Of a stretch of 64,000 bases of DNA, positions 35,664-41,621 are shown piece by piece (the first letter of the stretch is position 1; each line of letters starts with the position of its first letter). This stretch comes from Candidatus Bathyarchaeota archaeon. Its GTDB lineage: Archaea > Thermoproteota > Bathyarchaeia > Bathyarchaeales > Bathycorpusculaceae. The stretch is from positions 383,357-447,356 of the forward strand of contig CAWHDT010000001.1 in NCBI GenBank assembly GCA_963828195.1, in the 5' to 3' direction. The position numbers were made by a program, and so were the translations under genes. A model generated the notes under the pieces. It worked only from the letters and a program-made list of their open reading frames with translations, did no database searches and was not told where the DNA came from.

Positions 35664-35778
35664 TGGCGCCGGGAGGGGGATTTGAACCCCCGCGGCCCCG
35701 AGAGGCCACAAGCTGCTTGGTGCTTGCCTTCGGCAAACATCTCCAGGCTTGCTCCCTGCCTGGCTAGGAGACCCCGGC
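35664..35778 (-). tRNA. tRNA-Ser(GGA) with canonical 37/38 intron (35715-35740) and encoded CCA
   Basis: Reverse complement GCCGGGG...CAAGC CT GGA G^[26-nt hairpin intron]A GCTTG, long variable arm, GGTTCAAATCC, CCCGGCGCCA. Confidence 0.93.
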
Positions 35779-39553: not shown

Positions 39554-40060
39554 TGTTAACTTGCAACATTAATTTAACTCCAATCCTTTAAAACTTTGGG
39601 AACTTGCACCTAAAACCGAGGCAGTTTAAGTAAGCTGGGACGGCAGTTACCACGTTTTTAAGTTTTTTTCAAATTTACTGGACGCAGAAAAATCAGACAA
39701 CGTCAGGCGCATAACAATAAGCAATCTTGACAAGTTAAAACCTGACGTAGTGCGACATTGAAAGCAGCGGCGGATGTAGGCTTTGAGCACTGCCCAACTT
39801 ATTGATAAAACGAAAACTGCATTACCCAATTTAACGAGGTCTAGTCCTAAAGAAACCTGGAAAATTTTGTCATCTCAAGATCGTAAAAAATTATTGCTGC
39901 TCTTAGTGAAGCAAACGTTAGGCAATAGAGCAACGGTGTGACGTAGGGGCGATGATATTAACGCGGTCGAAGGCTATTTTTGAGTGGCTACAATAAAACT
40001 TGAGAAAAGTGTGCGTTAGAGATTTGTTTTTACATTTTCAATCTGTAGGAGCATGAATTA

Positions 40061-41246
40061 ATGCCTATTTCGTTGTTGTTTATAGGTCACCTAAGCATCT
40101 CAGCACAAGCTCTTTTACCTTACTTGAGTGAAAATGGTTACGACGTTAAAGTCGTAAACACTTCAGATTGGTCGTCTGAAAATAAAATTTATGGAACAAA
40201 TATTTCAGTCTACAATTTGTATGAGGCTAATAAAATTCATGCCCTTTTCAAGGGTCCGCTGGACTGGTACAGAAAAGCCATGTTATACAGTATGGCAAAA
40301 AACTTGAACCTTAAACGGGGCAGGCTCGCTCGGATTATTGGAAAGACCGAGCCAGATTTAATTTATGGACATTGGGGGTCTTACAGTCTTCCTGAGATTG
40401 GTTTAGCGCAAAAATTTCATGTGCCCACCGTTTACGAATTCCTCACGTATCCTTGTAGTAGCATCCAGTTGGGTCACGAAATTGAGAACTTTTTCAATAA
40501 ACGAACAGTGAATAACATTGATGGACGCGTATTTCCAACTCAACGCATGTCTAACTATATGAAAAGAGTGTTCGGCATGCATTTGGGAGAAAACTTGATT
40601 TATCTGGAATGTTTCCCCGAGAAATTCTATTACCGAAGAAGGTTACCTCTTCTATCAGAGGTTGACGGTCAACCGCATAGTTTTCACGGGCGTTAATGAC
40701 CGCGATATTCTTCAGCAAATAGAACAGATGGTCTCAAAGAAAATCCATGTTCACCTATGCAACGATATGTACAATCTGAGCCAAACTATGTGGCGTGAAA
40801 ACGCTTGGGAAGATCCGACGGGAGAGCGTGCTTTCAGAAACTCGGGTTTTATCCACTATTTCAACAGATTTGCATACCCAGAAATTGCTGACGGTACTTT
40901 TGCGACATTTTTGACACAGTTTGATGCATGTGTGGTTACCTATAATTTCTGGCGTACTTCTGGTGCAAACAGGTTTAGCAATAGCATTCCCAGTAGGTTT
41001 TCTACTGCCCTACTCGCTGGAATTCCAATCATCGTTCCAGAAGGTTATCTGCAGGGGTGCGCGGGAATAATAAACAAACATCAAATCGGTTTTGCGTATC
41101 AAAATTATACTGATCTGCAAAATAAATTATGCGATAAAAGTATGCTGAACTATTATCGGAAAAAAGCCATTGAAAATGCCCCCTCGTTCTCTCTTGAAAA
41201 CAATTTCTCGAAAATAGATAAGTTCCTTAAGCAGATAATTGAATAA
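40061..41246 (+). pseudogene. GT-B glycosyltransferase split by a frameshift at ~40678 (pseudogene or sequencing error)
   Basis: ORFs 40061..40696 and 40662..41246 overlap. Joining gives '...DGQPH(I)VFTGVN...' and the C-terminal 'PSRFSTALLAGIPII...IINKHQIGF'. Confidence 0.7.
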
Positions 41247-41491
41247 CCTGTTTTCTAAGAAGTGAGATCATCAATTATTCCATTTTGCTTGCTCACCCCT
41301 AAGTCTATCGATGTAGACCAAAAGGCAAAAGAACTAAGCCAAAAAAGATTGAGAATTATCGTAAACTAAACTTGCAAACAGTTATTGTAACAACCGACCG
41401 TTATCTAGAAAAATATTGTGATTTGCTATCTAATTTGAACGTTACAGTTATTACTTCCGACAAACTTACTGAGGTGCTGGACGGGAAATTT

Positions 41492-41595
41492 GGGCGAGTA
41501 AAAAAGGCTTAAAAATACTTTTTCTCGATGCTCAGTACGGATAGAGCACCAGCCTCCTAAGTTGGGGGTCGAGGGTTCAAATCCCTCCCCGCCCG
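41492..41595 (+). tRNA. tRNA-Arg(CCT) with a 29-nt BHB intron between positions 9 and 10 (41501-41529)
   Basis: Removing 41501-41529 gives GGGCGAG TA GCTC AGTACGGATA GAGC A CCAGC CTCCTAA GTTGG GGGTC GAGGG TTCAAAT CCCTC CCCGCCC G. The junctions form a full bulge-helix-bulge. Confidence 0.8.
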
Positions 41596-41621
41596 CGTTG
41601 AAATTTCCCAACAAAAAATGG

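Follow-up and report, generated by a model that had tools for sequence, protein, structure and literature searches.

We found that positions 41492-41595 very probably constitute the single functional tRNA-Arg(CCU) gene in the genome of a soil/bog Bathyarchaeia archaeon, carrying between tRNA positions 9 and 10 a 29-nt BHB intron that is predicted to be spliced out by EndA and RtcB. Positions refer to the window, that is, the whole 64,000-nt stretch of DNA that was analysed. Protein-spliced introns at odd positions in archaeal tRNAs were already known, and the 9/10 case extends them.

Gene anatomy, splice junction and uniqueness

In the precursor, acceptor nucleotides 4-7 would pair with CTCG at the 3' end of the intron to form a central helix. 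Nucleotides 1-3 would pair with D-stem nucleotides 11-13 to form an outer helix, and the intron hairpin would serve as the inner helix. A two-subunit EndA would then cut each 3-nt bulge on the 3' side of its second base, and ligation of the exons by RtcB would give a 76-nt tRNA. The features of the locus are as follows (a slash marks a predicted cut).

41438-41454, plus strand: promoter-like block AACGTTACAGTTATTAC, with a TATA-like TTATTA at -44 to -39 from the mature 5' end
41479-41485, plus strand: leader box GGACGGG (consensus GGRCGGG), a near copy of the 5' acceptor strand, 6 nt before exon 1
41491-41534, plus strand: whole hBHBh' motif, with predicted cuts after 41500 and after 41529
41491-41494 with 41531-41534, plus strand: outer helix (U41491-A41534, G41492-C41533, G41493-U41532, G41494-C41531)
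41495-41498 with 41524-41527, plus strand: central helix, CGAG with CTCG, 4 bp
41499-41501 and 41528-41530, plus strand: bulges UA/A and AU/G, 3 nt each, on opposite strands of the motif
41502-41507 with 41518-41523, plus strand: inner helix, AAAAGG with CUUUUU, 6 pairs, one of them G-U
41492-41500, plus strand: exon 1 of tRNA-Arg(CCU), GGGCGAGTA (5' acceptor strand G1-G7, then U8 and A9)
41501-41529, plus strand: BHB intron, 29 nt, between tRNA positions 9 and 10
41501, plus strand: nucleotide 3 of the 5' bulge (intron)
41502-41523, plus strand: inner hairpin (intron)
41524-41527, plus strand: CTCG, 3' strand of the central helix (intron)
41528-41529, plus strand: AU, nucleotides 1 and 2 of the 3' bulge (intron)
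41530-41595, plus strand: exon 2, starting GCTCAGTACGGATAGAGC (G10 to discriminator G73; D arm, anticodon arm with CCU, variable loop, T arm and 3' acceptor strand; matched by the Rfam tRNA model and part of the ARAGORN cloverleaf of the spliced product)

The first-pass annotation had proposed a tRNA-Arg(CCU) with a BHB intron at 9/10, and we found the 29-nt insert, a strict 3-4-3 motif and each helix and bulge that it described. The window motif has two 3-nt bulges, a 4-bp helix between them, and flanking helices h and h'. In tRNA numbering, the outer helix consists of three exon-exon pairs (nucleotides 1-3 with D-stem nucleotides 11-13) plus U-1:A14. Read 5' to 3', the bulge lies 3' of the central helix on each strand; canonical anticodon-loop introns have the same arrangement. 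As a chance control we shuffled the intron 200,000 times, and 26 of the shuffles gave a fully paired (4/4) central helix together with 4 bp or more of in-register inner helix.

The archaeal splicing endonuclease cuts after nucleotide 2 of each bulge. Applied to the window motif, this rule removes 41501-41529 and leaves a 76-nt product that ARAGORN folds as a tRNA-Arg(cct) cloverleaf. The standard cloverleaf predicted at first pass was thus borne out, and to the nucleotide: the product is identical to natural uninterrupted genes in all five sister-species loci tested (L035, L036, L038, L062 and L080). In uninterrupted orthologues exon 1 is contiguous with exon 2, and the expected mature junction would be GGGCGAGUA/GCUCAG. 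With the window bulge (AU/G), only a 9/10 junction restores the orthologous sequence. In four relatives the 3' bulge is AA/G, which would allow the junction there to be numbered 8/9 just as well. The acceptor stem contains a mismatch, A6.C67. Because uninterrupted orthologues have the same mismatch, it is a trait of this tRNA and not a sign of decay. Downstream of the discriminator base, 41596 is a C that could be C74; the window reads CGT at 41596-41598 where most relatives encode CCA, and similarity to relatives stops at these positions. The exons are separated by 29 nt, share a strand and have a single promoter-like block upstream, which is not the arrangement of a split, trans-spliced tRNA.

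Standard gene finders did not report this gene as a tRNA-Arg(CCU). ARAGORN found no tRNA in the whole window and, with its intron option, none in the unspliced 130 nt. The Rfam tRNA model matched only 41530-41587 (model positions 10-63 of 71; 40.5 bits). The expectation that scanners would report a truncated tRNA therefore held for Infernal with Rfam and failed for ARAGORN, which made no call at all. tRNAscan-SE 2.0 is described as adding 60 nt to its candidates so as not to lose introns close to their termini (PMC8450103).

Several other tRNA genes of this genome are interrupted. Those on contigs C1, C3, C5 and C9 were mostly missed or mis-called by Rfam or ARAGORN; they include a Gly(CCC) gene with an anticodon-stem insert (C1:329179-329284), multi-insert genes at C3:225014-225185 and C9:157258-157411, and further genes with non-canonical or multiple inserts (C5:405076-405181 and C5:608173-608279). 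Within the window, a tRNA-Ser(GGA) gene with a 26-nt intron adjoining the anticodon (35664-35778, minus strand) was missed by the Rfam scan at the gathering threshold, scored 35.3 bits in a whole-genome search and was found by ARAGORN with the intron option. After Rfam and ARAGORN scans of the assembly, the Leu(CAG, CAA, UAA), Thr(UGU), Trp and Tyr tRNAs were unaccounted for. There is also a candidate selenocysteine tRNA (UCA) at C3:100933-101016, called SeC by ARAGORN and scoring 29.4 bits with Rfam, just over threshold.

We looked for a second gene that could supply the same tRNA. The assembly (9 contigs, 96% complete) gave 44 Rfam tRNA matches and 45 ARAGORN calls, and none was a second tRNA-Arg(CCU); the Arg tRNAs called by ARAGORN were CCG, GCG, UCG and UCU. 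An intact copy elsewhere had been named at first pass among the results that would refute the reading, and we found none. A search of the assembly for the uninterrupted 5' part returned only an unrelated tRNA with 3 mismatches.

It is conceivable that the locus is a dead attachment scar or pseudogene, with the 9-nt exon a coincidence or relic and AGG read by tRNA-Arg(UCU), which exists at C5:745681-745758 (ARAGORN). The tRNA is a hot spot of integration, partial 3' copies of it lie on C5, and in two relatives (G077 and G093, described below) the same 5' part truly is a truncated remnant beside an integrase-bearing element. We nevertheless regard this reading as very improbable. Remnants of that kind are truncated or degenerate and have an intact copy elsewhere, whereas the gene in the window reaches the discriminator base with nothing missing and is the sole CCU gene found. 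Many congeners share its exon 2 at 100% identity, although the EgsA protein encoded next to it is only 72-89% identical in them. Conservation of the promoter block, and compensatory changes that have kept the intron pairing across three families (see below), also speak against a remnant.

The partial copies on C5 are three 3' fragments resembling tRNA-Arg(CCU) within 38 kb (C5:481932-481977, C5:484741-484787 and C5:519206-519228). One combines a CCU anticodon with a degenerate T stem, one is of UCU type, its sole difference from the window gene being C34 to U, and one is limited to T arm and acceptor. They may be ends or marks of integrated elements.

Conservation of the intron motif and the splicing enzymes

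Exon 2 was matched in 107 of the 120 species genomes of the genus. From these matches we fetched and classified 79 orthologous loci: 14 (in 13 genomes) have the 9/10 intron, 34 have no intron, 29 have a D-loop insert about 24-93 nt long, and the remaining 2 are partial or of another kind. We also searched the order with a pattern that joins exon 1 to the D arm across a gap of 18-48 nt. It matched 26 of 401 genomes, from 3 families and 11 of 117 genera; a reversed control pattern matched none. Besides the window's own genome, the matches comprise 18 of 247 genomes in family f1, 2 of 25 in f6 and 5 of 60 in f7, and two of the 26 genomes (G077 and G093) have truncated remnants. The first-pass annotation had called for orthologues that share the 9-nt exon and a covarying BHB. 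Such orthologues exist across the order, with covariation in 27 sequences. The f7 genes examined (L201-L203 and L205) have the 9/10 intron plus one or two further inserts. Two of them (L201 and L202, in G145 and G040) have two extra inserts, one in the anticodon stem and one adjoining the anticodon.

The BHB motif is maintained in the 27 distinct sequences. Pairing was found in 93.2% of cells, compared to 45-60% when the partners were slid by 1-3 columns. None of 500 shuffles reached the observed pairing or the observed covariation score, a measure in which related sequences inflate the counts. Four pairs change on both sides, and one of these is in the central helix: pair 6:(n-4) is A6-U in 18 sequences and G6-C in 9. 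There are two classes. Class A has exon GGGCGAG and intron end CTCG-AN, with the central helix 4/4 paired in 18/18 sequences. Class B has exon GGGCGGG and intron end ACCG-AN, with 3/4 pairs in 9/9 sequences (G7 faces A). Pairing reaches 100% in the outer helix and 90.7% in the inner helix. In the outer helix, two pairs change on one side only (including G-U to G-C) and the third is invariant; that is, there is no two-sided covariation. Nucleotide 2 of the 3' bulge varies (U, C, A or G), as does the first intron nucleotide in class B, which fits the expectation for unpaired bases. Covariation support from the genus alone was weaker than from the order-wide set. The L074 allele has no inner pair in strict register, and an inner helix in a 2-nt-bulge (2x1-loop) register fits the genus data equally well (92.3% paired versus 91.8%), so that these counts do not separate the two registers.

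This pattern bears on whether the 29 nt are removed at all. The tRNA might work with an extra hairpin retained between positions 9 and 10, and the lowest-energy cloverleaf-like fold does keep four arms and extrude the insert as a hairpin. However, if the hairpin were retained, there would be no need for acceptor nucleotides 4-7 to find complementary bases at its 3' end (CUCG; ACCG in class B), for that end to covary with nucleotide 6, or for 3-nt bulges whose cutting restores the exact uninterrupted sequence. An insert at the 8-9 junction would also disturb tertiary contacts in the core. We give retention next to no weight.

The genome contains genes for the enzymes that splicing of this intron would need. 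There are two EndA paralogues, of 184 and 183 amino acids, both matching PF01974 and encoded on contigs C5 and C3 at L101:1231-1785 and L102:1234-1785, and there is a gene for RtcB. An (alpha-beta)2 EndA pairs a catalytic subunit, which has a Tyr-His-Lys triad and a Crenarchaea-specific loop, with a structural one. The first paralogue is closest to the catalytic alpha subunits of crenarchaeal enzymes (2cv8, 3p1z_B and 2zyz_B; Sulfolobus, Aeropyrum and Pyrobaculum). It aligns with them end to end and has no gap across GIPKPKIPEFDAPL, which we take to be the Crenarchaea-specific loop. The second paralogue is closest to the M. jannaschii enzyme, and its matches to beta-subunit families are weak. 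It has a Thr at the presumed catalytic His site, as placed by reading the translation and not by alignment. From their sequences, the two paralogues look like a crenarchaeal-type two-subunit (alpha-beta)2 EndA. Non-canonical introns are reported to be cut only by (alpha-beta)2 and epsilon2 enzymes (PMC5829648; PMC3239211), and these two types are again given as the cutters of such introns in PMC12397907.

Folding of the precursor and a conserved leader box

The BHB occupies nucleotides 1-7 and 11-13, so that neither the acceptor stem nor the D stem can form alongside it. For the whole precursor we calculated -18.9 kcal/mol for the BHB conformer, -27.3 kcal/mol for a cloverleaf-like conformer from which the intron projects as a side hairpin, and -35.6 kcal/mol for the minimum-energy fold. 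Nor is the BHB the local minimum-energy fold, which pairs GGGCG with UGCUC. Because it is not the predicted minimum, the motif must compete with the acceptor and D stems. In addition, once both cuts are made, the 9-nt exon would be held by only three outer base pairs in this model. We counted the energy disadvantage against the proposal of a spliced 9/10 intron, together with the 3-bp central helix of class B, the L074 allele, the tie between registers and the A6.C67 mismatch.

The region upstream of exon 1 contains two conserved elements. A consensus AACGTTAnrGTTATWAC, corresponding to the promoter-like block, lies at a constant distance in 20 of the 20 upstream regions compared, from three families. 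The block may be a BRE/TATA element, in which case the usual archaeal promoter spacing predicts that the transcript starts near -15 and that the leader box, just downstream, falls at the start of the leader. A stop-to-stop frame at 41303-41511 that reaches into the intron was considered as a gene and rejected; it has no Pfam match, and promoter plus leader explain the conservation better. Further upstream, a family-4 glycosyltransferase gene is apparently split into overlapping frames at 40061-40696 and 40662-41246 (window 40061-41246, plus strand), of which only the first has Pfam matches, and weak ones.

The leader box is associated with the 9/10 intron. GG[GA]CGGG was present 3-8 nt upstream of exon 1 in 27 of the 29 alleles with the intron (the other two have GGCGGG), and in none of the 63 alleles without it. 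Among intron-bearing alleles the box is constant while the spacer and flanks vary. Four alleles have the same promoter and leader and no intron, and in these the box has decayed by 1-3 substitutions. Two D-loop alleles with that promoter have other sequence in place of the box. In two f7 genes (L201 and L202) the upstream box is GGCGGGTAA, a fuller copy of exon 1. The association could also be inherited linkage, because all intron-bearing alleles share one ancestor, and the box and the 3' acceptor strand offer no covariation test of their pairing because both are nearly invariant.

RNAfold paired the box with the 3' acceptor strand in the minimum-energy fold of all seven precursors folded. With the box paired in this way, the BHB conformer of the G000 precursor equalled the cloverleaf (-27.3 kcal/mol each), and in the six other precursors it came within 0.3-2.1 kcal/mol of the cloverleaf.

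Based on these folds and on the association of the box with the intron, we tentatively suggest that the box is a surrogate acceptor strand that aids splicing and tethers the 5' exon, a possibility that we regard as less likely than not and which predicts that the box is transcribed. The box would pair with the 3' acceptor strand of the tRNA, and the true nucleotides 1-7 would be released to build the BHB. The 9-nt 5' exon would stay tethered to the tRNA body during cutting by EndA and ligation by RtcB. Strand exchange would then restore the real acceptor stem, and RNase P would remove the leader.

The same folds allow a variant in which the intron is removed from a relaxed substrate, consisting of central helix, 5' bulge and inner helix, in a cloverleaf-like precursor. 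For two precursors (G000 and L210), the minimum-energy fold with the box keeps the D arm and forms the central and inner helices as a side hairpin, with no outer helix. Enzymes of the (alpha-beta)2 type are reported to tolerate motifs that lack one bulge or one helix (PMC3239211). The outer helix, moreover, is only 3 bp of exon sequence and has the one-sided changes described above. These changes (including G-U to G-C) nevertheless leave the outer pairs pairable in 27/27 sequences, which speaks for a complete motif, and we think a relaxed substrate unlikely, while taking it seriously. The data fit both forms of the substrate, and the relaxed one refines the proposal of a spliced 9/10 intron without displacing it.

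The proposed tether resembles what is known of split tRNAs (Nanoarchaeum equitans and Caldivirga maquilingensis), in that the box would hold a short 5' piece to the tRNA body. In split tRNAs, complementary leaders are described as holding the pieces together and creating a BHB at the leader-exon boundary (PMC4390854). Unlike split tRNAs, the window gene lies entirely in cis within 105 nt. Its proposed tether also differs from their paired dedicated leaders: it would be a copy of the acceptor strand, located in the leader, that pairs with the 3' end of the tRNA itself.

Alleles, integrating elements and known introns

Within the genus there are three alleles of tRNA-Arg(CCU), with no intron, the 9/10 intron or the D-loop insert, and integrase-bearing elements appear to swap them. 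We compared the alleles to a tree of the EgsA protein with 61 rows, 12 of them intron-bearing. The tree omits genomes with no determined allele or no clean EgsA. For G077 the label is that of its intact D-loop copy, and for G096 that of its C16 copy. The allele types were scattered on this tree no better than shuffled labels. The tree gives no support for a single gain of the intron within the genus: 12 changes are needed to explain the 12 intron rows, and well-supported branches force at least 6 of these. The scatter could reflect allele replacement, or it could mean that one gene makes a poor species tree. G019, whose EgsA is the closest among the relatives (89% identical), has an uninterrupted tRNA-Arg(CCU) gene. 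Its DNA homology to the window ends at 39824 and resumes at 41530, the start of exon 2; 39825-41529 has no counterpart.

Tyrosine-integrase genes abut or overlap tRNA-Arg(CCU) in relatives. The arrangement is clearest in G077 (L217; G077:C18:12450-18500) and G093 (L216; G093:C6:227400-230300). In both, the 5' part of a 9/10-intron gene breaks off within the anticodon loop. Next comes a segment of 2.6 or 5.7 kb that contains a tyrosine-integrase gene (PF00589), and beyond it lies an entire D-loop-type gene. The integrase frame runs antisense into exon 1 and the insert of the D-loop gene, the insert overlapping the start of the frame, and the truncated 5' part marks the opposite end of the element. 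This layout implies that the 5' half of the D-loop allele comes with the integrating element in at least these two genomes. Judging from the same arrangement, the 9/10 allele is in both cases the resident allele, apparently displaced by the element. No element link was found for the 9/10 intron itself.

In G016, an integrase frame (PF00589; L032:1578-2504) begins inside the 3' part of an intron-bearing tRNA gene and runs downstream. It resembles integrases whose attachment site lies inside their own gene.

We considered where the intron might have come from. Integration and recombination have been proposed to create new introns (PMC4390854; PMC3293823). As at tRNA attachment sites of archaeal integrative elements, integrases of the relatives adjoin tRNA-Arg(CCU) and partial copies mark the ends of elements. 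This model applies directly to the D-loop-insert allele of sister species and not to the 9/10 intron. Three D-loop inserts (L193, L194 and L041, in G097, G068 and G013) contain a 16-21-nt copy of the tRNA's own sequence from anticodon loop to T stem. No shuffle out of 1000 scored as high as these self-copies, which, from sequence, look like the scar of a duplication or recombination. A corresponding origin for the 9/10 intron, by copying of the T arm and 3' acceptor strand of the same tRNA followed by decay, was not supported: when 14 introns were aligned locally to the mature tRNA, the shuffle fractions were 0.085-0.999. D-loop inserts served as the positive control, and for 3 of 7 no shuffle out of 1000 scored as high. 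Transposition of the intron was rejected, as blastn-short searches for copies in the genome gave only matches of at most 16 nt, which is chance level.

Like the non-canonical BHB introns of Thermoproteales, Thaumarchaeota, ARMAN-2 and Asgard archaea, the 9/10 intron is short and has a 3-4-3 BHB that is built in part from exon sequence. Its genome also resembles those of other hosts of such introns in having other non-canonical and multi-intron tRNA genes and an EndA that appears, from sequence, to be of the (alpha-beta)2 type. As with D-arm introns of Asgard archaea, gene finders miss the gene (bioRxiv 10.64898/2026.10.13.758758). It differs in that the motif consumes the 5' strands of both the acceptor stem and the D stem, and in that a conserved upstream box is present. 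It differs also in position. Among the positions that a review names (3/4, which is called extreme, 20/21, 22/23, 25/26, 29/30, 30/31, 45/46, 53/54, 56/57, 59/60, 'etc.'; PMC4090602), 9/10 does not appear. Positions of non-canonical introns have been called 'seemingly random' (PMC8450103). We found no mention of 9/10 in the literature searched, which did not include the primary catalogues of intron positions, and 9/10 is possibly an uncommon, unrecorded position.

There is a practical consequence for annotation. Bathyarchaeia genomes processed with ARAGORN or Rfam will seem to lack tRNA-Arg(CCU), an apparent absence that arises because ARAGORN misses the gene and Rfam truncates it. There is also a structural puzzle. 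The precursor must choose between the tRNA fold and the splice-site fold, and the 9-nt exon needs to be retained during cutting and joining. The leader box, if it acts as suggested, offers a concrete mechanism for both exon retention and fold choice; an intron so near the 5' end would then be viable only with a dedicated cis-acting helper element. Finally, the genus provides a natural experiment, with the same gene in three states, that bears on the origin and spread of non-canonical tRNA introns.
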